From positions 1,024,001 to 1,088,000 of the forward strand of contig OY762463.1 of assembly GCA_963665815.1 (NCBI GenBank): a DNA stretch of 64,000 nucleotides, given 5' to 3'. A program made the position numbers and the translations under genes. The notes beneath the pieces are model-generated. The model was not told the origin of the DNA and did not search any database. It saw only the letters and a list, made by a program, of their open reading frames with translations. Of the stretch, positions 27,686 to 36,603 are shown in pieces (positions within the stretch are counted from its first letter, which is position 1; every line of letters starts with the position of its first letter). Source of the DNA: Candidatus Cloacimonadales bacterium (lineage in GTDB: Bacteria > Cloacimonadota > Cloacimonadia > Cloacimonadales > JAIOQZ01).

Positions 27686-28669
27686 ATGAAAAAATCACGA
27701 AATTGTCATGCAATGGATTACATCCAAATGGATTAATGAACCAATCAAAGTGTTTTACAGACTTGGTATCCCTGATTTTTTAGGCAATACTTCTATGACT
27801 CTAGAGGAATTATCACTGTTGACACAAACGATTCCAGAAAAACTGATCAGACTATTGCGAGTCCTTGAATCAGTAAAAATTGTAAGTGTAACTGATAATG
27901 ATATCAGTCTGACAGAAACAGGTAGTTTGTTTCAAAAAAAACAACTTGGCTGTATTGCCGGTATGATATTTTCAGACTGGCATGATTCTGCCTGATCACG
28001 ATTAGATGACTGTCTTAAGTCAAATGAAAATGGTTTTGAGTTAGCTCACAATTCTGAAGCATTCGACTGGCTTTCTAAGCATCCGGAGTATATGCAACAA
28101 TATAATTCAGCCAATAGGATGAAATCACAAATGATTAGCCATATCTATTGGAGAATTATGACTTCTCAACTACGACATCTATTGTTGATATCGGAGGAGG
28201 AAATGGAGGAATATCAATTACTTTAAAGAATATTTTTCCAGAGCTTGAAGTAGTTCTGACTGATTCCGAAACTGTGATATCACATCTTGCGTCTGATATT
28301 CACTTTCAGGAGTCCTCAATCGTTCTCGAAGCTTGTAATTTCTTTGAATCAGTCCCGTTCATATCCGATAAAGCCCTGTTATCAAACATTCTTCATGACT
28401 GGGATGATGAAAGATGTGCTGAAATTCTTAAGATTCTTAAGGATAACTCTGCTGCATCCAACAAAATCCTGATTATGGAATATCTTGTACCTGAAGATTC
28501 ATCTTTCAATGTGAGTAAATTGCTTGATATTGAGATGATGGTAATGGGAAGCGGTAAAGAAAGAACGCTATCTGAATATGAAAATTTGTTTGCTCAATGT
28601 AAATTTAAAATATCCAACCTGATCAAAACAAAATCTGGATTATCAATCATTGAAATTTCACACAGCTGA
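27686..28669 (+). pseudogene. SAM-dependent O-methyltransferase (Methyltransf_2/COMT-like) pseudogene
   Basis: IVDIGGGNG, NFFE, LSNILHDWDD and GKERT motifs. The RBS-linked ATG at 27686 is out of frame by one A, there is an in-frame TGA at 27993-27995, and a second frameshift near 28145. Confidence 0.8.
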
Positions 28670-28774
28670 CACCATTAAACGTCAACACCTTTTTTAATCA
28701 CACTTCAAACACAATTTTCATGCAATTCATTGATTTTCTTGACTTGAAAATCGACAATCCCAAAATCCATCTAT

Positions 28775-29425
28775 ATGGATAATCAGATATTTCTTTATTA
28801 TTACAGCTTCAAGGATATCGAAGAAGATTTTTCTATCAGCAATAGAAGGCCATTGATTGCATCCTTACAAAAAGAAGCAGAACGCTACCGTTTTATTGCC
28901 GATCGCAACAGATTTATTACCGGTAGACTGCTTATAAGACACGCTTTGAGTCAACATGGATTTGAGGATGTTACATTATCTGACATACTTTACTCTGACT
29001 GTCTTAAACCCAGGTTTGATTTTCCATTTTACTTCAATTTAAGTCACTCCGGTAAATATATCATTCTTGCTGTATCTCTTAACAATGATGTTGGTTGTGA
29101 TATAGAGTTCCATAACCCCAATCTTGACTTCAGCGAGTTTTCTTCATTCTTTACGGATGAAGAACTGAGTTTAATTTCAACCTCTCCCCTACCTGTGAAA
29201 TCCTTTTTTGATTTATGGACAATCAAAGAATCCCTGCTTAAAGCCGACGGTCGAGGAATGCACTTCCCTCCCAAATCAATCAGACTTCAAAATAATTATG
29301 GAATGCTGGACAACGAAAAAATCTACTTCAGAATCACTGAAATTGCTGAGCAATACTCAACATCAATTGCATGCACAGAAAATTTTGATACTATTAAATT
29401 TATAGAAGTAACCAATTTGATTTAG
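28775..29425 (+). CDS. 4'-phosphopantetheinyl transferase (Sfp-type)
   Basis: FNLSHSG, VGCDIE, FFDLWTIKESLLKADGRG. Confidence 0.93.
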   Translation: MDNQIFLYYYSFKDIEEDFSISNRRPLIASLQKEAERYRFIADRNRFITGRLLIRHALSQHGFEDVTLSDILYSDCLKPRFDFPFYFNLSHSGKYIILAVSLNNDVGCDIEFHNPNLDFSEFSSFFTDEELSLISTSPLPVKSFFDLWTIKESLLKADGRGMHFPPKSIRLQNNYGMLDNEKIYFRITEIAEQYSTSIACTENFDTIKFIEVTNLI

Positions 29426-29568
29426 TTCTGATAATTGTCTGATTATCTCCGACAGTGTAATTACACCCGGTAAATTACTTAAAATCAGGCGTTGACAGCA
29501 TGTTCAATCACACACTTCTGGCACAAAAATAAACAATAAAAGCACCAGCATGCTTTACAGGAGATATT

Positions 29569-30417
29569 GTGTTATACTTATTATTAGTGTCCTTTACTTG
29601 GGCTTTTTCTTTCGGTTTAATCAAAGGTATCCTAACCGGTGTTAACCCGATTCTCGTTTCATTCATCAGACTCAGCATTTCTCTGGTGATTTTCATGCCT
29701 TTCCTCAGGATTTCAAAACTAAACTTCAGGCAAATGAAGAGTCTATTCCTCATTGGAGCAGTGCAATTTGGAGTAATGTATGTTTCTTACATATCTGCAT
29801 ACAAGTACTTGCTTGCCTGGCAGATTGCTCTTTTCACGATTTTTACACCGATTTACGTAACAATTATTAACGATTTATATAAAAAGAAATTTTCTATTAT
29901 CCCGCTTTTCGCTGCAATACTATCAATTGTTGGAACGCTGATTATTATGTTTAAAACAGGCGAACCTGGACCATTCCTTAAAGGTTTTACTCTTGTGCAA
30001 ATATCTAATATCAGCTTTGCCTGGGGACAGATTGCTTATAAAAAAATGAATTTTCCTGTAAATTTCAAGCAGGTTAATGCATTTGCCATATCCTATCTTG
30101 GAGCAGTAGTTCTGACAGGTATTTCTGCAGCACTTACAGTTGATTTCTCTGTAGTAGCATTCACTGCAAAACAAGTTTATACATTAATCTATCTCGGTGC
30201 AATAGCTTCTGGAATCTGTTTCTTCCTCTGGAACTATGGAGCAAAGAAAACAAGTGCAGGCTTACTTGCAGTAATGAATAACCTGAAGATACCTTTGGCT
30301 GTAGTCTGCTCACTACTTTTCTGGCATGAACAGGCAAACATTACAAGACTTGCACTTGGCTCTGTTGTCATCGTAGCTGCTATGATGCTGAACAAATTTA
30401 AACGTAAATCACTATAA
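29569..30417 (+). CDS. EamA/DMT family transporter
   Basis: About ten hydrophobic segments, WAFSFGLIK, IASGICFFLWNYG. GTG start with GGAG RBS. Confidence 0.9.
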   Translation: MLYLLLVSFTWAFSFGLIKGILTGVNPILVSFIRLSISLVIFMPFLRISKLNFRQMKSLFLIGAVQFGVMYVSYISAYKYLLAWQIALFTIFTPIYVTIINDLYKKKFSIIPLFAAILSIVGTLIIMFKTGEPGPFLKGFTLVQISNISFAWGQIAYKKMNFPVNFKQVNAFAISYLGAVVLTGISAALTVDFSVVAFTAKQVYTLIYLGAIASGICFFLWNYGAKKTSAGLLAVMNNLKIPLAVVCSLLFWHEQANITRLALGSVVIVAAMMLNKFKRKSL

Positions 30418-30429
30418 TCATTTTGATAT

Positions 30430-30554
30430 AAGACATTAAGAAAGGCTGTCCTGTGGGCAGCCTGTTTCACTCTCACAAAGAACGATCCCCAGACAACTAT
30501 AGCAGCAATTATCAGCAACCCGGTGAACAATTTTCTTGACCATTTTCCACTCAT
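30430..30554 (-). pseudogene. N-terminal fragment of a membrane-anchored protein (T2SS/T4P accessory-like)
   Basis: MSGKWSRKLFTGLLIIAAIVVWGSFFVRVK: basic residues plus one TM, in ATGA overlap with an upstream fragment ending ..HIMTKLSS*. It then runs into antisense of the EamA gene. Confidence 0.4.
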
Positions 30555-30804
30555 GAGCTCAATTTAGTCATAATATGGAGTAAGGAGACAGGATTGTACG
30601 TAGGTAACACAGCTTTAGTTGTCCAGGAAGACCACTACTACCCGTTCGGAATTAGGTTAGTCGGAATGTCCACCGATACCGGGCAGAATAATAAATTCCT
30701 TTACAACAATAAGGAATACGAAAATGAAAATAAGGTACCTCCTATGGTCTTCGAACTGACGTTCTACAGACTTCGGAGTGGAGACTCTCGCCTACGGCTA
30801 CGAG
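30529..30804 (+). repeat. ~276-bp segment duplicated at 33593..33868 (leader, Rhs core start and 75-bp element)
   Basis: Colinear at offset 3064, including TAATATGGAGTAAGGAGACAGGATTGTA and QEDHYYPFG codons. Confidence 0.9.
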
Positions 30805-31523
30805 CTCATTTTTGGAGACTTTCGGGCTATGCCCTGCAAGCTCATTGCTGGATGGCAGTTGATCCAGCTGATGAGTTTTTTAGCCCTGAAGGTGTCTCTT
30901 ATGGTTCTCGGATCGGAATCCTACGAACTTCAGAGACGAGACTCTCGCCTTCGGCTACGAGCTTATATAATGACCCGGTGAACTTCCTTGATCCGGATGG
31001 GGCGGAGCAAACTCCAGCTTACTTAGTTGTAGATATAATGTTGGACTATGTTGAATTAGATGGGAAACTAAGTAACTCAGGCGTAATAGCAAAACTAAAT
31101 GAAGCTGCATCTATTGCAGAGGGTAGATTCAATAGACATAATCCAAATGATTCAGACATACTAAAGGCAAAATATCTGCATGACGGTAAATTTTTAAGAA
31201 GTTGTGCAACAATATCTTCTTCTAACAGTACTATAAAAGGGATAGATACTGGAAAAAAAATAACAGTAGGAGCTGGGGCTCTTGCAGTCGGAGGAGTCGG
31301 TATAAATGCAGCACGAATGGGGGCAAAGCATATGGCACAGCCTTTACTGAATGGTACATATGATCTTATGGCTGGAGGAACTGATGTTCTAAGTTTGGGT
31401 ACAACACTTTTTATAGAAACTCCTCATGTTGACCACAAGGCAATTAAGAAAGATTGGAACTTAAGATATAAATATCAAGATTATGACAGAGGAGATGATG
31501 GATATGATTTTAATGAACTTTGA
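30594..31523 (+). CDS. Orphan Rhs repeat-associated core fragment with C-terminal putative toxin domain; core interrupted by two in-frame inserts
   Basis: VVQEDHYYPFG, NKFLYNNKE, WMAVDP and NDPVNFLDPDG, followed by ~170 aa of unrecognised CT. The YD-repeat body is absent. Confidence 0.8.
   Translation: MYVGNTALVVQEDHYYPFGIRLVGMSTDTGQNNKFLYNNKEYENENKVPPMVFELTFYRLRSGDSRLRLRAHFWRLSGYALQAHCWMAVDPADEFFSPEGVSYGSRIGILRTSETRLSPSATSLYNDPVNFLDPDGAEQTPAYLVVDIMLDYVELDGKLSNSGVIAKLNEAASIAEGRFNRHNPNDSDILKAKYLHDGKFLRSCATISSSNSTIKGIDTGKKITVGAGALAVGGVGINAARMGAKHMAQPLLNGTYDLMAGGTDVLSLGTTLFIETPHVDHKAIKKDWNLRYKYQDYDRGDDGYDFNEL
30732..30806. repeat. 75-bp structured repeat element, copy A
   Basis: Ungapped alignment to copy B (57/75 identical by hand count) and near identity to copy C. 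Confidence 0.85.
30889..30963. repeat. 75-bp structured repeat element, copy B
   Basis: AAGGTGTCTCTTATGGTTCTCGGATCGGAATCCTACGAACTTCAGAGACGAGACTCTCGCCTTCGGCTACGAGCT. Confidence 0.85.
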
Positions 31524-31553
31524 AAGTTCAATAAATAACAAAAGGAAATATCA

Positions 31554-32447
31554 ATGAGGTACTTACTGATTACTATAGTACTTTTTATAGGTACATTTAC
31601 TCTATATAGTGTTGAACTATTATCCGTTGAACAGTTAAATGAATTTGCGGATTCAATTCGTAGTAAGATGGTAGCAAATGATTTTACTGGAATCTGTATG
31701 ATGGAAAAAGGAATGAGAAACTTTATAACAAATACAGATCAATTATATATGAAGTATGAATCCTTTGATGTTCTTGCAAAGTCATTTATCTTGATCAATG
31801 AATATAGTAAAGCTAAACAATGCTATAGCGACATAACAAAAATACTATCAGTCACTCAAAATACAGTTTACTGTAAATATTGGGTAATTGCTAAATTCAA
31901 AACAATAATTGCAAATAAAAAGCTTAGTTTTGAAGAAAAGATGAAGGAATTAGAAAGATTTAGAGTTTCTGATTTTAAGAATCTTAATGTGACATGCTAT
32001 TATGAAGTTTTAAGTTATATGTTAACTGGATCAAAAATACGAAAGCAATATTTTCTTGACTTGTTTAAAGACCGAGTCGTTTCTAATGATATCAAAATCA
32101 ATTTTATGATTTTCTTATCAATAATTGAAATAGATGAAGAAAATAATGATGAATCAATGAAATATTTGAAAAGAGCAGAAAAATTAATACCAACGATTAC
32201 AAATTTCAGGAATATATTAGAAATGCAACTCAATTTGGCAAAAACCTTGTTATATGATAGACAACAGAATATTGCAGAAAGCAACAAGTATTTATCCAAA
32301 GCTATTCAAATTAAATCCTCAATTTCTAACCTAGATAGTATCAATATCTTTAGTTTAATGAAATTTGACAACATGATTCCTTATCCTGATAATGTGATAA
32401 GGCAACTAGAAAGTATTGAGAGGAGGATAAATGAGCAAAAGAATTAA
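31554..32447 (+). CDS. AT-rich exported helical/TPR-like protein, candidate Rhs immunity protein
   Basis: AAGGA RBS, signal peptide, directly after the Rhs CT. Confidence 0.6.
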   Translation: MRYLLITIVLFIGTFTLYSVELLSVEQLNEFADSIRSKMVANDFTGICMMEKGMRNFITNTDQLYMKYESFDVLAKSFILINEYSKAKQCYSDITKILSVTQNTVYCKYWVIAKFKTIIANKKLSFEEKMKELERFRVSDFKNLNVTCYYEVLSYMLTGSKIRKQYFLDLFKDRVVSNDIKINFMIFLSIIEIDEENNDESMKYLKRAEKLIPTITNFRNILEMQLNLAKTLLYDRQQNIAESNKYLSKAIQIKSSISNLDSINIFSLMKFDNMIPYPDNVIRQLESIERRINEQKN

Positions 32448-33381
32448 GATAAATAGTATCCTTCTGTTGGTTTTATTAACATTTTGTTCAAGATTTTTTG
32501 CATTTGAATATGTGAACTATTATCCTTTGAAGCAAAATTTAACACTTGAAGAGAAAGAGGTGGTAGAAAATTTCTCTTTCTTGATGAAAGACATATTGAA
32601 CGACAATTTCGCAATCGCTGGAACAAGCTTATCATTCATTTTCAGTCGTAATCAATTAAAAAATAATCCATTTGTTACAGAAAATCCTAAAGTCATATTA
32701 ATTCAATTCAGGGTAATTTATAACATAAGAATTGGAAATTATGAATTGGCTAAACTCTTATTTGATGAAGTTGAAAAGTCCTTCCAAGAGCCTACTAATG
32801 ATTTATCAAATGAGTTCTTCGAAGAGCTCAAATTGTATAAGTATTCAATTATGGCTAAACTGGAACCAGATAGTTTAGAATATTATGCGCGAAAAATCAT
32901 AGATATTGTTACTCCTAAAGATTTATTCTGCTATACATATCGCTTGAACTGGTTATTTGATAATGGCTATTACAATGATTTACAGAAGATTGTAAAAAAC
33001 TCAAATGATACTTTTGATATAATTAGTAACATAAGGTGTCTTTATGAGCAAAAAAAGTATGATGATATTGAAAATTTATTTATTCAGTTGAGTCGCAGTC
33101 CTCACAAACAAACTCCCGATCTTTTGCTTTATATTAGTTATATTAAATGCCTTATCGCCTTTAATAAGGGAAAAATCGACAAATCGATAAAGCTTTTAAA
33201 GAAGAATCAAAGAATGTTTAATGAGCTTGAAGTTTATATTAAAACTCATAATTTGAGAGAAAGATTTATTGATGAAAGTTTAAGAACACTAGTATTTAAT
33301 TTTGATGGATTGAATTTCACTTTAACAAATGAGCAGATAATGCAACTGTTGACAATCCAAGAAATGAGTAAATTAGATTAA
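32431..33381 (+). CDS. AT-rich exported helical/TPR-like protein, second candidate immunity protein
   Basis: GGAGG RBS, overlaps the previous gene, signal peptide. Confidence 0.6.
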   Translation: MSKRIKINSILLLVLLTFCSRFFAFEYVNYYPLKQNLTLEEKEVVENFSFLMKDILNDNFAIAGTSLSFIFSRNQLKNNPFVTENPKVILIQFRVIYNIRIGNYELAKLLFDEVEKSFQEPTNDLSNEFFEELKLYKYSIMAKLEPDSLEYYARKIIDIVTPKDLFCYTYRLNWLFDNGYYNDLQKIVKNSNDTFDIISNIRCLYEQKKYDDIENLFIQLSRSPHKQTPDLLLYISYIKCLIAFNKGKIDKSIKLLKKNQRMFNELEVYIKTHNLRERFIDESLRTLVFNFDGLNFTLTNEQIMQLLTIQEMSKLD

Positions 33382-33393
33382 CTTTTTTATATT

Positions 33394-33424
33394 GAAAAGC
33401 CAGAACTCGTTTTCTGGCTTTTTC
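33394..33424 (+). terminator. Intrinsic terminator
   Basis: AAAAGCCAGAA-loop-TTCTGGCTTTTT after the cassette. Confidence 0.8.
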
Positions 33425-33476
33425 TGTCTGAACCATGATTCTCTTGATTTATATGATTGAAGGATTGCAAGGATAA

Positions 33477-33513
33477 ACACCTTCGGAATGGTTAAAGACC
33501 TTCCGAATGGTGT
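33477..33513. repeat. REP-like imperfect palindrome
   Basis: ACACC-TTCGGAA-T-GGT-TAAAG-ACC-TTCCGAA-T-GGTGT. Confidence 0.6.
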
Positions 33514-33564
33514 GACAAACTGCTATCTTTTTTTTGAAATCAACTGTGCAGTCCTGTAATACGC

Positions 33565-33589
33565 GTAGAGGCAACCGGACGGTTGACTC
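33565..33589 (+). repeat. GTAG-type REP-like palindrome
   Basis: GTAGAGGCAACCGGACGGTTGACTC: a GTAG tetranucleotide at the foot of a GC-rich hairpin. Confidence 0.55.
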
Positions 33590-33657
33590 AATAATTTTCT
33601 TGACCATTTGCCACTACTGAGCTCAATTTAGCCTTAATATGGAGTAAGGAGACAGGA

Positions 33658-33876
33658 TTGTATCTGGGAAACACAGCTTTAGTAGTACAGGAAGACCATT
33701 ACTATCCATTTGGGCAACGTTTGAATGGGCTTTCCATGGCAAGTGCAAATCCTAATAACTTTCTTTACAATGGGAAGGAATTTGAAGATGAGAATAATGT
33801 ACCTCCTATGGTCTTCGAACTGACGTTCTACAGACTTCGGAGTGGAGACTCTCGCCTGCGGCTACGAGATTATTAG
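33658..33876 (+). pseudogene. Truncated second Rhs core fragment
   Basis: VVQEDHYYPFG..NNFLYNGKEFEDEN, ending at element copy C with no DPDG or CT. Confidence 0.8.
33796..33868. repeat. 75-bp structured repeat element, copy C
   Basis: Near identical to copy A, at the equivalent position in the second Rhs fragment. Confidence 0.85.
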
Positions 33877-34048
33877 TAAAGAAATTATCTTTCACCTGCA
33901 CAATAATAGAATCAGGTTCAATGCTGTAAATAAGCCCAAATTCTGCCTGTTCATCCTGACTTAGCACCATGGATTTACCTTTAAACTCCAGTATCAAGGT
34001 TTTACCTATAACACCGGTTATGTTTATTTCTGGTCGATGGACAATGGG
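33870..34048 (-). pseudogene. C-terminal gene fragment resembling a GspC/PilP-like beta domain
   Basis: Open frame PIVHRPEINITGVIGKTLILEFKGKSMVLSQDEQAEFGLIYSIEPDSIIVQVKDNFF with no start context. Family call is from pattern memory only. Confidence 0.4.
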
Positions 34049-34094
34049 CTATGAGCAAAGTCGTCGCATATACTTTTAACACCATTTGCAAATC

Positions 34095-34791
34095 AAAAAG
34101 GCCCCGAGAATTCCCAGAGCCTGTAAAGTTAGTTGGATGTCAAATGCGACGAAATCCCGACCTATTTGAAAAGGTCCTTCAGCAGTTTTTCTGCTTCTTT
34201 TTCGACTTTCTTGCCAACAAAAGAAAGTCTTTTCCCTTAAATCAAAGTTGTCGCATTATCTATAGTGATGAACATTTCAATAAAAAAAGGCCCCGAGAAT
34301 TCCCAGAGCCTGTAAAGTTAGTTGGATGTCAAATGCGACGAAATCTCGACCTATTTGAAAAGGTCCTTCAGCAGTTTTTCTGCTTCTTTTTCGACTTTCT
34401 TTCCGGCAAAAAGAAAGTCTTTTTACCTTTTTGGGGTAGTTGTCGCATTATCTATAGTGATGAACATTTCAATAAAAAAAGGCCCCGAGAATTCCCAGAG
34501 CCTGTAAAGTTAGTTGGATGTCAAATGCGACGAAATCTCGACCTATTTGAAAAGGTCCTTCAGCAGTTTTTCTGCTTCTTTTTCGACTTTCTTTCCGGCA
34601 AAAAGAAAGTCTTTTTACCTTTTTGGGGTAGTTGTCGCATTATCTATAGTGATGAACATTTCAATAAGAAAAGGCCCCGAGAATTCCCAGAGCCTGTAAA
34701 GTTAGTTGGATGTCAAATGCGACGAAATCTCGACCTATTTGAAAAGGTCTTTCAGCAGTTTCTCTGCTTCTTTTTCGACTTTCTTTCCGGC
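34095..34791. repeat. Tandem direct repeat, ~3.6 copies, periods 189/192/192 bp, each containing the last ~57 nt of the 34735..36603 gene and a terminator
   Basis: GGCCCCGAGAATTCCCAGAGCC recurs at 34100, 34289, 34481 and 34673. Copies differ by a few substitutions and one variable segment. Confidence 0.95.
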
Positions 34792-36603
34792 TTTATCTTT
34801 TTCCTTATCGATTTTGCCTTGAACTTCATTTTGTTTACCTTTGACCTTAGCTAATTGCTTATCGATCTTGCTTTGCATTTTTTTCATTTCAGAATCAAGC
34901 CTTGCTTTCTGTTTGTTTATCTGGTCATCAAGTTGTTTCTTGTACTTGGCAACTTCTTTATCAACCTTCTTACGCAATTCTTGTTTAGCTCGATCTACTT
35001 CTGCACTGAGTGCTTTTTTCATTTCTCTTGCAATCAGATTATCGAGATTACTATTCAAGTCGAATGAGTAATCAGAATCTTTCTGGCTGATTTTTGCATC
35101 AAAAGTAATAACATTTATTGCCTGAGTAATCCTCTTTGCAATTCTCAGGAGATGTTTGTTAAGCTTCTTTGAGTACACATCTGAAAACCTGAGTTTGTCT
35201 CCCTTAAAACCTACACTTGAAACAAAGTCACTGTTAAGAATATCAATCTCTGAGCTGAATGTTGCTTGTCCTGATTCCAGTTTTTCAGGTAACAAGACAA
35301 AATTGGAAAGTTTTGTTCCGTTAAGTGGTATTTCACTAGCAACAATTTTTACGTTCTCGTGGAATTGCTCATTTCTGTGGTCCAGAGTAGCATCTATGCT
35401 TGCTTTGAACAATCCGGCTCTGCTTCCGCTTAATTTTGCAGTAATCGGAGTATTAATTCTGTCCTGATCAGATGAGATATTGAATATCTGTCCTTTAATT
35501 TTGAGCCCGTCACCTGCTTCACCGGAAAGAGTAATTTCTTTCAGCCAGAAGTTTGGTAATTCAGGATATTTTTCTGCTTTGGGTTCTGCTTCTACAGCTT
35601 CAGGTTTATCCTGTTTGATTTCTCTCGACATCTGTATGTATCCTATAGCCATCATTAAACCATCTGAAAGTCTGTCTCCAAACAGCATTTTTGCAATATC
35701 TTCAACATTTGATGAAGGTAGGTTAGCAATATTCAATGCTTTGTTATAATCCGCTTTAACCCACTTAGGAACATCTTTTCTGAGACCATTAAGAAGCTTC
35801 ATATCTTTAGAGAAATTCTTTTTAACCTCTTTAGCTTCTTTAAACAGTTTCTGAGATTTATCATAAGCAAATTTAGCATTATCCAGAGCTTTCAATAACT
35901 CATCAAGCTTCTTCAAATTATTAACATCTATTGCACTGATCTTTTTCTCAATTTCTTTATAATCTTTTTCATAAGTATTGTTTTTGAATTTATCATCCCA
36001 ATATGCGTAACGTTCATCTGCAATTTTCTTAAGTGAATCAATTTTAGCAGGTGTCTGAAGTTCGAGAAGAGCGAATACGGAATCAACATCGATATTTGCC
36101 TTAAGTGAAGCAGGATCAAATACAGGAATCTTATCCTTTTCTTCCATGATCTTTGCTTTGATCTTTTCAGTTACCATTTTAGCTACTTTGCTCTGTCCTT
36201 TTTTCTTCTTTTTAGGATCAGGCTCAATATAACCATCTTCCGCTCTGACAGTATTCATTTTAAAGTTTACTAACTGTACTTTATTCATGACAACTTTCTT
36301 TGCCAGCAGAGGTTTAATCTCCATATTAATTTCTGTTCGACCAAATTCAAACAGGTTTTTCTTTGTATTGTCCTTATCAGTCATCTGGAATCTGTTCCAG
36401 GACAATGTTCCTTCGAATGGTTCAAACTTGAGACTGTCAACATTGAGTTGAGCTCCATAGATTTTGGAACCTTTCCCTTCAATAAAATTTGTAAGTATAT
36501 TATTTCTGAAGTGATAAACTCCAAATAATCCACCTGCAAAAATTATAAGAAATATAAGTAATCCAAGAAAAAACTTACCAAATTTCTTAAAGAATTTCTT
36601 CAT
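34735..36603 (-). CDS. TIGR03545/AsmA-like membrane-anchored protein with coiled-coil C-terminus
   Basis: N-terminal TM, GAQLNVD, KKNLFEF, PNFWLKEI, NSNLDN and a Lys/Glu-rich tail. Confidence 0.7.
   Translation of the reverse strand: MKKFFKKFGKFFLGLLIFLIIFAGGLFGVYHFRNNILTNFIEGKGSKIYGAQLNVDSLKFEPFEGTLSWNRFQMTDKDNTKKNLFEFGRTEINMEIKPLLAKKVVMNKVQLVNFKMNTVRAEDGYIEPDPKKKKKGQSKVAKMVTEKIKAKIMEEKDKIPVFDPASLKANIDVDSVFALLELQTPAKIDSLKKIADERYAYWDDKFKNNTYEKDYKEIEKKISAIDVNNLKKLDELLKALDNAKFAYDKSQKLFKEAKEVKKNFSKDMKLLNGLRKDVPKWVKADYNKALNIANLPSSNVEDIAKMLFGDRLSDGLMMAIGYIQMSREIKQDKPEAVEAEPKAEKYPELPNFWLKEITLSGEAGDGLKIKGQIFNISSDQDRINTPITAKLSGSRAGLFKASIDATLDHRNEQFHENVKIVASEIPLNGTKLSNFVLLPEKLESGQATFSSEIDILNSDFVSSVGFKGDKLRFSDVYSKKLNKHLLRIAKRITQAINVITFDAKISQKDSDYSFDLNSNLDNLIAREMKKALSAEVDRAKQELRKKVDKEVAKYKKQLDDQINKQKARLDSEMKKMQSKIDKQLAKVKGKQNEVQGKIDKEKDKAGKKVEKEAEKLLKDLFK

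Follow-up and report, generated by a model that had tools for sequence, protein, structure and literature searches.

Organization of the locus

The window, a 64,000-nucleotide stretch of contig OY762463.1 from a Candidatus Cloacimonadales bacterium (genome G000; G001 is the sister genome, from another species of the same genus), carries two orphan Rhs-core fragments within a species-specific island. Three copies (A, B, and C) of a short hairpin element were found in these fragments at the places named by an earlier, sequence-only reading of this DNA. The features are as follows.

30466-34054, no strand: species-specific island enclosing all the features below
30526-30593, plus strand: conserved cassette leader, AAGGAG followed by the TTG start of MYVGNTALVVQEDHYYPFG
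30594-31523, plus strand: orphan Rhs C-terminal cassette ORF, 309 aa, with A, M3, and B within one open frame
30732-30809, plus strand: copy A, 78-nt element, site S1
30737-30780, plus strand: H1 part of copy A, three stems with TAT/TC and TC/TAC internal loops between them and a 4-nt loop
30781-30807, plus strand: H2 part of copy A
30810-30848 (core 30815-30843), plus strand: M3 module, a solitary H2-type hairpin unit
30889-30966, plus strand: copy B, site S2, 76% identity to A
31554-33381, plus strand: two overlapping ORFs, 297 and 316 aa, between the orphan fragments
33658-33876, plus strand: second orphan Rhs-core fragment, 72-aa frame, ending abruptly at copy C
33796-33873, plus strand: copy C, 95% identity to A
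33874-34036, minus strand: fragment of a small conserved gene

The leader is common to the second fragment (33590-33657) and to other family-1 orphans. Copies A and B share one 309-aa ORF, but the element is translated in different phases; a DPDG motif follows copy B and leads into a C-terminal domain without an assigned family. Judging from their position, the overlapping ORFs at 31554-33381 are probably immunity genes, and the first of them (297 aa) gave weak TPR matches. An ORF of the small-gene fragment (33806-33997, minus strand) extends into copy C, and the same segment also lies 3' of the element at G000 2712, 5025, 3963437, and 3358350, and in G001. Between the flanks of the island, the sister genome has instead an unrelated 2.2-kb segment with a 442-aa ORF. 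A pattern for the second hairpin gave three matches versus 0 expected. Promoter-like sites in 30300-34200 were rarer than in shuffles, and a terminator scan of the same interval found no terminator-like site at any copy.

Structure and covariation of the element

Copies A and B aligned without gaps, as had been reported, with the count of differences corrected from 18/75 to 19/78 nt. Five pairs had changed on both sides and were still paired, in agreement with the earlier reading; in a simulation, at least five such pairs arose in 5 of 200,000 random placements of 19 substitutions (p = 2.5e-5). Two further positions were paired in B only. Likewise, the second hairpin of A, B, and C varied solely at its middle loop base (A, T, and G, respectively, on the plus strand). 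The minus-strand C-GNA-G triloop that had been proposed is present in all three window copies, but it is not a family trait: loops elsewhere in the family are TCA, TTA, TAA, AAA, or four bases long.

The basic unit is a hairpin of ~30 nt, built of an outer stem, a conserved TC / T(A/G)C internal loop, an inner stem, and a free loop. A full element (78-81 nt) comprises one unit inside an extra stem (H1) and then a second unit (H2), and units occur nested (H1), singly (H2-only, M3), or as tandem runs. The same architecture and TC/TAC loop are common to H2, M3, and inner H1; compensatory changes separate the M3 module at 30810-30848 from H2 and are also present in copies of the 2712 type. In 20 distinct G000 copies taken together, pairing was present in 91.8% of cells and 13 of 22 pairs were double-changed, the two inner helices of H1 being 100% and 98.8% paired with zero one-sided changes, versus 23-52% pairing in slid-partner controls; the depth of this covariation is limited because the element is carried by two genomes only. 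Single-sequence folding energy was unremarkable (z +0.08 to -1.5 as DNA and -0.55 to -2.4 as RNA), and it is covariation, not stability, that constitutes the evidence for structure. Wobble counts gave no signal of a preferred folding strand, the strand-specific wobbles being balanced (7 on the plus versus 8 on the minus strand) with one invariant G.T aside. A purely structural search for the 30-nt unit returned 151 matches, mostly AT-rich noise; the genuine ones were those with a GAGACT/AAGAYT signature, all of them within known loci.

Family size and range

An nhmmer search found 24 full copies in this genome, and the one further species in the genus has 9-10. At E<=0.001, the covariance-model scan that had been suggested returned 24 matches in G000 and 9 in G001, with carriers amounting to 2 of 41 relatives. 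In a sample of the phylum, the element was present in 2/151 Cloacimonadota genomes and 1/53 genera, the other 149 genomes being without it, and a pattern scan of species genomes had G001 as its sole match. Viral contigs, plasmids, and phages contained no match to the element. The H1 pattern had 0 matches in metagenomes, while a loose H2 pattern had at least 119 chance matches there; the 80 loci that were modelled all scored <30 bits and were GC-rich unrelated DNA. A search of sequencing runs gave three matches, all of them contigs of one sample from one study and none listed as RNA. Since the joints and depth peaks on these contigs stem from short repeat contigs of paralogous cassettes, they carry no information on excision or expression. 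The sequence-only reading had recognized no named family, and the element indeed has no Rfam match: scanning 28000-36000 with the Rfam 15 covariance models produced two weak unrelated matches, elsewhere in the stretch. Our literature search found no account of hairpin repeats inside Rhs cores, nor of repeats in Cloacimonadota.

Residence in Rhs cassettes

The suggested bias toward Rhs cores was borne out: 23 of the 24 full copies in this genome reside in arrays of Rhs/polymorphic-toxin cassettes, at nine loci that make up an estimated ~2.5% of the genome, and all 23 are sense to the toxin ORF; because many copies share descent, these cassette and orientation counts, like the open-frame counts below, represent perhaps 6-10 independent events. 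The cassette copies sit in toxin-cassette ORFs, leaders, or tails. The exception is one copy with a tandem run in ordinary intergenic DNA, antisense to both neighbours; at this orthologous intergenic locus the run has 5 copies of the unit in G000 and 2 in G001. The two genomes together have four full-length Rhs genes, all of them without the element; most orphans carry it, with seven orphans free of it. Among 31 ORFs of five arrays, Pfam matches were to helicase, UPF0047, LRR, DUF6443/RHS, and T9SS-tail families, and to no nuclease or recombinase.

Uninterrupted paralogues match the Rhs C-terminal core model TIGR03696 at model positions 1-75 and interrupted ones only from position 29-38 on, indicating that the element splits the core. 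Copies of the S2, S3, and leader types lie 12-40 nt ahead of the core/toxin boundary (DPDG or LDGA). The claim that the reading frame is kept through the insert stood for Rhs family 1, in which 8 of 10 S1 copies (within frames of 218-352 aa) and the S2 copy are open, but failed for the second (LDGA) family, in which none of the six core-embedded copies is: every one of these full copies, with S3 and S4 flanks, hits a stop or shifts the frame, and LDGA-family copies put a stop immediately ahead of the toxin frame. Over 31 copies, the sense frames were free of stops in 24, 12, and 19 cases and the antisense frames in 3, 2, and 7. The encoded peptide varies with hairpin type and phase.

Insertion sites and rearrangements

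The 5' end (AAKGTR) and the 3' end (GAGCTYWT) of the element are constant in six or more flank types (S1, S2, S3, S4, leader, and 2712-type) and in one intergenic copy. Entry into the conserved core segment of polymorphic-toxin (Rhs) cassettes has taken place at several distinct points. Neither terminal inverted repeats nor a target duplication was seen at six or more sites examined; 3-16 host bases are replaced, not duplicated, at every site. Replacement instead of addition of sequence, as had been supposed, did not survive comparison with uninterrupted paralogues, relative to which the element adds a net +69 nt (A) and +66 nt (B). Copy B is the filled counterpart of a near-identical empty paralogue, g2108155; site S2 is occupied once across G000 and G001, by copy B alone, and its inner hairpin is that of copy g2082302, which occupies another site.

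As anticipated, several deletion and chimera junctions coincide with copies. Paralogue g2012499 has two M3 copies, and the M3 of the window combines the left flank of the first with the right flank of the second; WYHYGVRYYDPQLGR, absent from the window ORF, was therefore lost in a separate deletion between two M3 copies. Copy C does end the second Rhs fragment, as described; it is in addition a chimera joined inside H2, with an S1-type left flank (Rhs core) and a 2712-type right flank. Three copies mix the left flank of one site with the right flank of another, and the sister genome has the intact two-copy form behind such mixed-flank copies. One pair of adjacent orphans is free of differences for at least 170 nt upstream and at least 115 nt downstream, yet its inner hairpins differ at 13 of 27 nt. 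Every combination of inner-hairpin type, H2 type, and site is represented.

Search for a mobilizing enzyme

The proposed link to HUH enzymes and single-stranded DNA found no backing in gene neighbourhoods, as no Y1 gene of either genome has the element nearby. This genome encodes two Y1 (RAYT-like) genes, both flanked by their own, different REP hairpins, and no further IS200-type TnpA; the loci of the four Y1 genes of the sister genome contain no element (best 11.5 bits, E 0.18), and its IS200 copies bear other hairpins. TnpB, IS110-family enzymes, serine recombinases, and reverse transcriptase were not found in G000, and the best match to an integron integrase was TIGR02249 at 76 bits versus a cut-off of 265 bits. 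Two of the four tyrosine recombinases in G000 are Xer-like; of the other two, one lies 1.5 kb from a copy and resembles an island integrase accompanied by an excisionase, and one lies 12 kb from the intergenic copy. None of the four is specifically linked to the element. The copies show no bias of replication orientation (12 leading, 10 lagging), and their left flanks have no clear common target tetranucleotide. On the minus strand, the bulge of each unit reads G(T/C)AG, inside the hairpin and not 5' of it. Neither a mobilizing enzyme nor a clean insertion footprint was found, and true transposition is at most a candidate mode of entry.

Discussion

Palindromic repeats of small size are as a rule found between genes, in association with a RAYT or an IS. 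The explanation that we prefer, with slightly better than even confidence, is that the element represents a new, genus-restricted family of small non-autonomous palindromic repeats, of the REP/BIME/RPE kind, that colonizes toxin cassettes. After entry, its carriage would have depended mainly on duplication of cassettes and on gene conversion over short tracts between copies, and as a dispersed direct repeat it would give rise to core deletions and chimeras. Where the spare cassettes of an Rhs family have their own ribosome-binding site and start codon, only ORF-compatible, sense copies may survive; in the silent second (LDGA) family copies break the frame. Pairing could be maintained by selection on propagation or recognition of the element, or by hairpin-templated repair, and the inserting enzyme is probably not encoded in this genome.

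Like REP/BIME sequences, the element is built of short, imperfect hairpins whose flanks are conserved and whose stems covary, forms mosaics and tandem runs, lacks terminal inverted repeats and target duplication, and shows deletions between copies. A tetranucleotide on one strand is GTAG-like but lies in a bulge inside the hairpin. Unlike them, it is not extragenic (23/24 in toxin-cassette ORFs, leaders, or tails), numbers tens of copies rather than hundreds, flanks no RAYT (the two RAYT-like genes have other REPs), and has much shorter stems interrupted by two conserved internal loops. Rickettsia palindromic elements (RPEs), according to a review, are palindromic repeats that lie in frame in protein-coding genes and are tolerated as an extra peptide (PMC10969869). 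The present element resembles them in having frames open on one side and a length that is a multiple of three, but is unrelated in sequence and smaller (78 versus ~150 bp). Moreover, RPEs occupy many unrelated genes with a conserved peptide, whereas this element encodes a changing peptide, resides almost only in spare toxin cassettes, and disrupts rather than extends its second host family (LDGA). MITEs such as the Correia repeat-enclosed elements of Neisseria can interrupt or flank genes related to secretion systems or toxins (PMC10210955). Our element is similarly small and non-autonomous, but its ends are not inverted repeats, there is no target-site duplication, and no related IS was seen. 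IS200/IS605-derived PATE have a matching TnpA (often also TnpB), a conserved left-end target oligonucleotide, and a lagging-strand bias, unlike the situation in G000, where TnpB and further TnpA are missing, left flanks vary, and both replication orientations are represented.

Other explanations have to be weighed against these data. An HUH (Y1/RAYT or IS200-like) transposase acting in trans on a REP-type element folded as single-stranded DNA would account for the defined ends, the absence of inverted repeats and target duplication, and hairpins with conserved irregularities, which are hallmarks of Y1-HUH substrates. REPs are imperfect palindromes with a conserved GTAG-type tag, which the minus-strand G(T/C)AG resembles, and two Y1 proteins are encoded in the genome. 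Nevertheless, we consider this origin unlikely, given that both Y1 genes have unrelated REPs, that the four Y1 genes of the sister genome are without the element, that TnpB, strand bias, and a clear target tetranucleotide are all lacking, and that ~24 copies lie within ORFs instead of hundreds between genes. Recombination sites of an integron-type cassette array are most improbable. Conserved structure with variable sequence, asymmetric unpaired bases, and a free terminal loop are the general design of attC, and these traits and the same-orientation cassette arrays are shared here, but the genome has no integron integrase, the outer stem lacks the conserved attC core motif (compared by eye), and most copies lie inside ORFs near the 5' end of the cassette, not 3' of it. 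By eye, a tRNA-like structure, group II intron domain V, and a ribozyme were dropped for want of defining motifs and Rfam matches, and a type III toxin-antitoxin repeat array was dropped for the tandem run at 3456 kb as no ORF follows the run.

We regard as improbable a cis-acting RNA element, which might block 3' exonucleases and so stabilize upstream immunity mRNA, or slow the translation of orphan toxins. In its favour, every one of the 23 cassette copies lies sense to the ORFs, the RNA minimum-energy fold is the covarying structure, one G.U pair is invariant in 20/20 distinct copies (G-C in two others), and 2712-type copies lie directly 3' of immunity genes, just as REP-like stabilizers lie just 3' of genes. 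Against this, there is no Rfam match, the inner helices vary by Watson-Crick double changes alone with no G.U intermediates, the minus strand folds equally well or better (z -2.1 and -2.3 for A and B, versus -0.55 and -0.79), the intergenic copy is antisense to both neighbours, and distances from starts and stops vary widely. A functional signal, in which the structured DNA is a 'handle' or 'lock' that marks cassette boundaries and guides or gates toxin-module exchange, is in our judgement quite unlikely; for example, loss of the element could be required before a spare cassette can recombine into the main rhs or be expressed there. Its near-exclusive cassette home, the copies 12-40 nt before the core/toxin boundary, its absence from full-length genes and presence in most orphans, the coincidence of rearranged-cassette junctions with copies, the LDGA-family stop directly ahead of the toxin frame, and the conserved unpaired loop bases are all consistent with such a role. 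However, there is no dedicated recombinase (neither integron integrase nor serine recombinase), the sole nearby tyrosine recombinase resembles an island integrase with excisionase, seven orphans are without the element, one copy and a tandem run lie in ordinary intergenic DNA, and ordinary homologous recombination at any dispersed direct repeat gives the same deletions. A specific form, in which the hairpin unit signals the 5' boundary of silent toxin cassettes and gates exchange via a host factor that recognizes TC/TAC, is to be given similarly little credence.

Two observations bear on our preferred reading of a selfish repeat. The near-exclusive cassette niche and the absence from all four full-length genes also fit a cassette function. 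Conserved unpaired bases (TAT, TC, and TAC) point to specific recognition by some factor and count against a purely decaying selfish repeat, which need not keep them.

This covarying hairpin family, from a candidate phylum that has received little study, is confined almost wholly to a shared toxin-cassette core; it keeps an open frame in one toxin family, is disruptive in another, and lies at breakpoints of cassette rearrangement. As selfish DNA, it would be a clear-cut new example of repeats that shelter in silent gene cassettes and reshape Rhs loci. As a functional element, it would be without known precedent as a structured DNA signal governing the exchange of toxin modules. Were it a boundary signal, the toxin that a cell can deploy would depend on whether the element is gained, lost, or recombined, much as repeats bound the cassettes of antigenic variation, of which this would be the bacterial equivalent. 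Annotators should note that the odd inserts of 22-27 residues in these Rhs C-terminal proteins represent translation of the repeat and not a protein motif.

Copies in the window and range of the family

The genome under study (G000) is a single contig of 3.96 Mb with 36% G+C, the window being positions 1,024,001-1,088,000. The sequence-only reading had named three copies of a hairpin element in the window, and all three were found, each a two-hairpin DNA repeat (H1, then H2; 78-81 nt across the family):

30732-30809, copy A
30889-30966, copy B, 76% identical to A
33796-33873, copy C, 95% identical to A

The pattern given for the second hairpin had 3 matches in the window vs. 0 expected. Copies A and B aligned without gaps and differed at 19 of 78 positions; as had been claimed, five pairs were changed on both sides with pairing kept, a number reached in only 5 of 200,000 trials that placed 19 substitutions at random. 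The proposed C-GNA-G triloop fits the three window copies, but other members of the family do not all have it.

A search of the genome with nhmmer gave 33 matches, 24 of them full copies. A covariance model made from 21 copies matched 24 times in G000 and nine times in the sister genome, the one other species of the genus (G001), at E<=0.001, many of these copies sharing descent, and had zero matches in the other 39 relatives. Within the genomes scanned, the family was recovered from these two alone. It was present in 2 of 151 genomes and 1 of 53 genera sampled from the phylum (absent from the other 149 genomes), and when 185,579 species genomes were scanned for the exact pattern, only G001 matched. 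A metagenome scan with the H1 pattern gave zero matches, and searches of viral contigs, plasmids, and phages gave none; metagenome matches to a loose H2 pattern were attributed to chance, the 80 loci scored with the model all giving <30 bits. Rfam holds no family matching the element, in keeping with the earlier failure to recognise a named one, and a literature search found no description of such repeats inside Rhs cores. When the host ORF was searched against proteins, 14 matched: the two genomes account for 11, an ENA contig supplied one relative that is uninterrupted, and the last two matches were weak and distant (E 8e-5 and 5e-4).

Sites and orientation

Nine toxin-cassette loci, spanning about 100 kb as estimated from coordinates (~2.5% of the genome), carry 23 of the 24 G000 copies, which bears out the suspected bias to Rhs cores. 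The hosts belong to two Rhs-type families, one ending ...DPDG (family 1) and the other ...LDGA.

Sites of the element, named by their flanks
S1: family 1, between ...YNGKEFEDEN and WYHYG; ten copies in G000, two in G001
S2: between FFSP and YNDP; copy B only
S3: LDGA family, 12 nt before LDGA
S4: LDGA family, after RFL
Leader type: decayed leader, element, then LDGA
2712-type: downstream of immunity genes, sharing sequence with the 3' end of a small gene that is convergent
Intergenic: one copy, outside cassettes

All 23 cassette copies in G000 lie in the sense orientation of the toxin ORF. Relative to replication (direction from cumulative skew, which is lowest near 2.70 Mb and highest near 0.52 Mb), 12 were leading and 10 lagging, two terminus copies being left out. 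Full-length Rhs genes had uninterrupted cores in 4 of 4 cases (G000, 1354 and 3337 aa; G001, 1298 and 2951 aa), and seven orphans (C-terminal toxin cassettes that are not part of a full-length rhs gene) are also uninterrupted in G000. The intergenic copy (G000:C1:3456030-3456201; L011:3009-3202, - strand) consists of H1 and, after it, a tandem run of five 30-nt H2 units; the surrounding 900-nt spacer contains other hairpin repeats as well. The orthologous locus, G001:C13:269581-269700, has two tandem units, so that unit number differs between the two species.

Covariation of the hairpins

H1 reads CTCC, TAT, GGTCT, TC, GAAC, a 4-nt loop, GTTC, TAC, AGACT, TC, GGAG, its outer stem reaching 6-7 bp in some copies, and H2 reads GAG, A, CTC, TC, GCC, a 3-nt loop, GGC, TAC, GAG, CTC. 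Among 20 distinct copies, 91.8% of cells were paired and both-sided changes occurred in 13 of 22 pairs, while a control with slid partners gave 23-52% of cells paired. The two inner helices of H1 were 100% and 98.8% paired, with zero one-sided changes. Inner hairpins fall into discrete types (GGTCT-GAAC, GGTTC-GGAT, GGTTC-GGAC, GATTC-GGAT, GATTC-GGGT, and GGTCC-GGAT), H2 carries GCC/GGC or GGAC/GTCC, and more compensatory changes occur in 2712-type copies (AAG, A, TTC ... GAA, CTT) and in M3, a solitary H2-type module between A and B in the window ORF 30594..31523 (+). In the alignment of copies the unpaired TAT, TC, and TAC are nearly invariant and the terminal loops free. Single-sequence fold energies were ordinary (z +0.08 to -1.5 as DNA, -0.55 to -2.4 as RNA). 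Hairpin-templated correction during replication is a known mutational mechanism, and the strict Watson-Crick double changes could reflect either this or selection on the hairpin.

Since H2 follows one ~30-nt design with the inner two-thirds of H1, including a common TC / T(A/G)C internal loop, the element amounts to two units, with an additional stem enclosing the first; in one composite copy a single outer stem surrounds two inner units. The + strand has one invariant G.T pair, which becomes G-C in two divergent copies, and the remaining wobbles are even (7 on the + strand, 8 on the - strand), a balance that favours neither strand as the one that folds. In A and B, the minus strand folds slightly better.

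Insertion and reading frame

The inserts had been thought to replace host sequence. Comparison with uninterrupted paralogues instead showed a net gain at each site (S1 and S4, +69 nt; S2, +66; S3, +77; an H2-only copy, +34; M3, +36), with 3-16 host bases replaced and no duplication at every compared site. Copy B is a filled site whose flanks are about 95% identical to an empty paralogue.

Preservation of the frame held for one family only. Frames of 218-352 aa hold eight of the ten S1 copies, the other two being the chimeric copy C and a frame-shifting copy of 77 nt, but all six full copies in LDGA-family cores lie in short frames; the S4 copy start reads TAA TGA, and S3 puts TAG right before the toxin frame. 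The phase in which the element is read differs between A and B, and across 31 copies the stop-free frames numbered 24, 12, and 19 in sense and 3, 2, and 7 in antisense. Family-1 orphans have a common leader with AAGGAG and then a TTG start (MYVGNTALVVQEDHYYPFG...), at which an NCBI database protein of G001 begins. Open frames and leader start together fit selection for open frames in family 1 only. The leader lies at window 30526-30600 and 33590-33660 and also in loci L004, L001, and L043. These orphans are intact ORFs of ~200-350 aa, several in arrays without a nearby full-length rhs gene, and may be translated alone as mini-Rhs toxins instead of being silent spares.

Recombination between copies and nature of the element

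In a neighbouring orphan pair, at least 170 nt upstream and at least 115 nt downstream are identical while 13 of 27 inner-hairpin positions differ, and the alternative inner hairpin recurs without any difference in a third copy. All combinations of inner-hairpin types, H2 types, and sites were seen. Copy C joins an S1 left flank, inside H2, to a 2712-type right flank, and three G000 copies have an S4 left flank with an S3 right flank where G001 keeps both elements, 153 nt apart. The paralogue g2012499 has two M3 copies, and the single M3 of the window ORF is flanked on its left as the first of these is and on its right as the second is; the ORF thus lost WYHYGVRYYDPQLGR when direct repeats recombined to delete what lay between them.

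The element is a discrete unit whose defined ends recur at several unrelated flanks. Its stems covary, its loop bases are conserved, it is built of modules and tandem units, its host range is narrow, and it codes for nothing; these traits place it with REP/BIME-type and RPE-type repeats. It conforms to none of the named families, however: unlike REP/RAYT systems it has no RAYT link and is not extragenic, and it lacks the TIR and TSD of MITEs, the conserved peptide of RPEs, and the IntI of integron attC sites. RPEs are carried in frame inside genes (PMC10969869), and Correia elements occur at Neisseria T6SS loci (PMC10210955). On balance, we lean toward a hairpin repeat that is selfish, or at any rate non-autonomous, and that has the core shared by toxin cassettes as its niche; it would spread mainly via cassette duplication and short-tract conversion between copies, and would remodel Rhs loci through deletions and chimeras at copies.

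Mobilisation by a HUH transposase, as the sequence-only reading had proposed, appears unlikely: both Y1 genes of G000 have REPs of another kind on their flanks, and the element is absent near all four Y1 genes of G001. The G000 genes are RAYT-like (G000:C1:2133690-2134177 and 3509380-3509924); a separate REP hairpin family, unrelated to the element, brackets each of them, and one motif occurs 11-20 times in the genome. That the hairpins act as a functional boundary or lock signal of cassettes is also rather improbable, and we consider a role as an RNA cis-element quite doubtful. Sites resembling integron attC are scarcely credible, since no IntI was found in G000. Searches of this genome also gave no IS110, serine recombinase, reverse transcriptase, or TnpB, and 31 ORFs from five arrays had no Pfam match to a nuclease or recombinase. 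A 362-aa tyrosine integrase that looks like an island integrase, together with an excisionase-like ORF (L005:1417-2841, G000:C1:2057416-2058840), is 1.5 kb away from one copy, at one end of the 2059-2085-kb LDGA-type Rhs cluster, which may be on an integrative island.

The window island

The island at 30466-34054 is missing at the orthologous G001 locus, and no repeat or recombinase marks its borders. Its G001 counterpart (L042, G001:C8:512400-515400) has an unrelated 2.2-kb segment with a 442-aa ORF between an EamA transporter gene and a DUF748 gene. Adjoining the island on the right is a 192-bp tandem repeat (34095-34791; 3.6 copies, 96% matches). A small conserved gene of about 75-84 aa, with no match in Pfam, was found at window 33806-33997 (-), L001:2736-2990 (-), and L046:4101-4328 (-); its native context is after an unclassified 468-aa ORF (L046:4392-5798). 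The small gene extends into the element at its 3' end, and pieces of the gene have been duplicated along with toxin cassettes, including at the right border of the window island.
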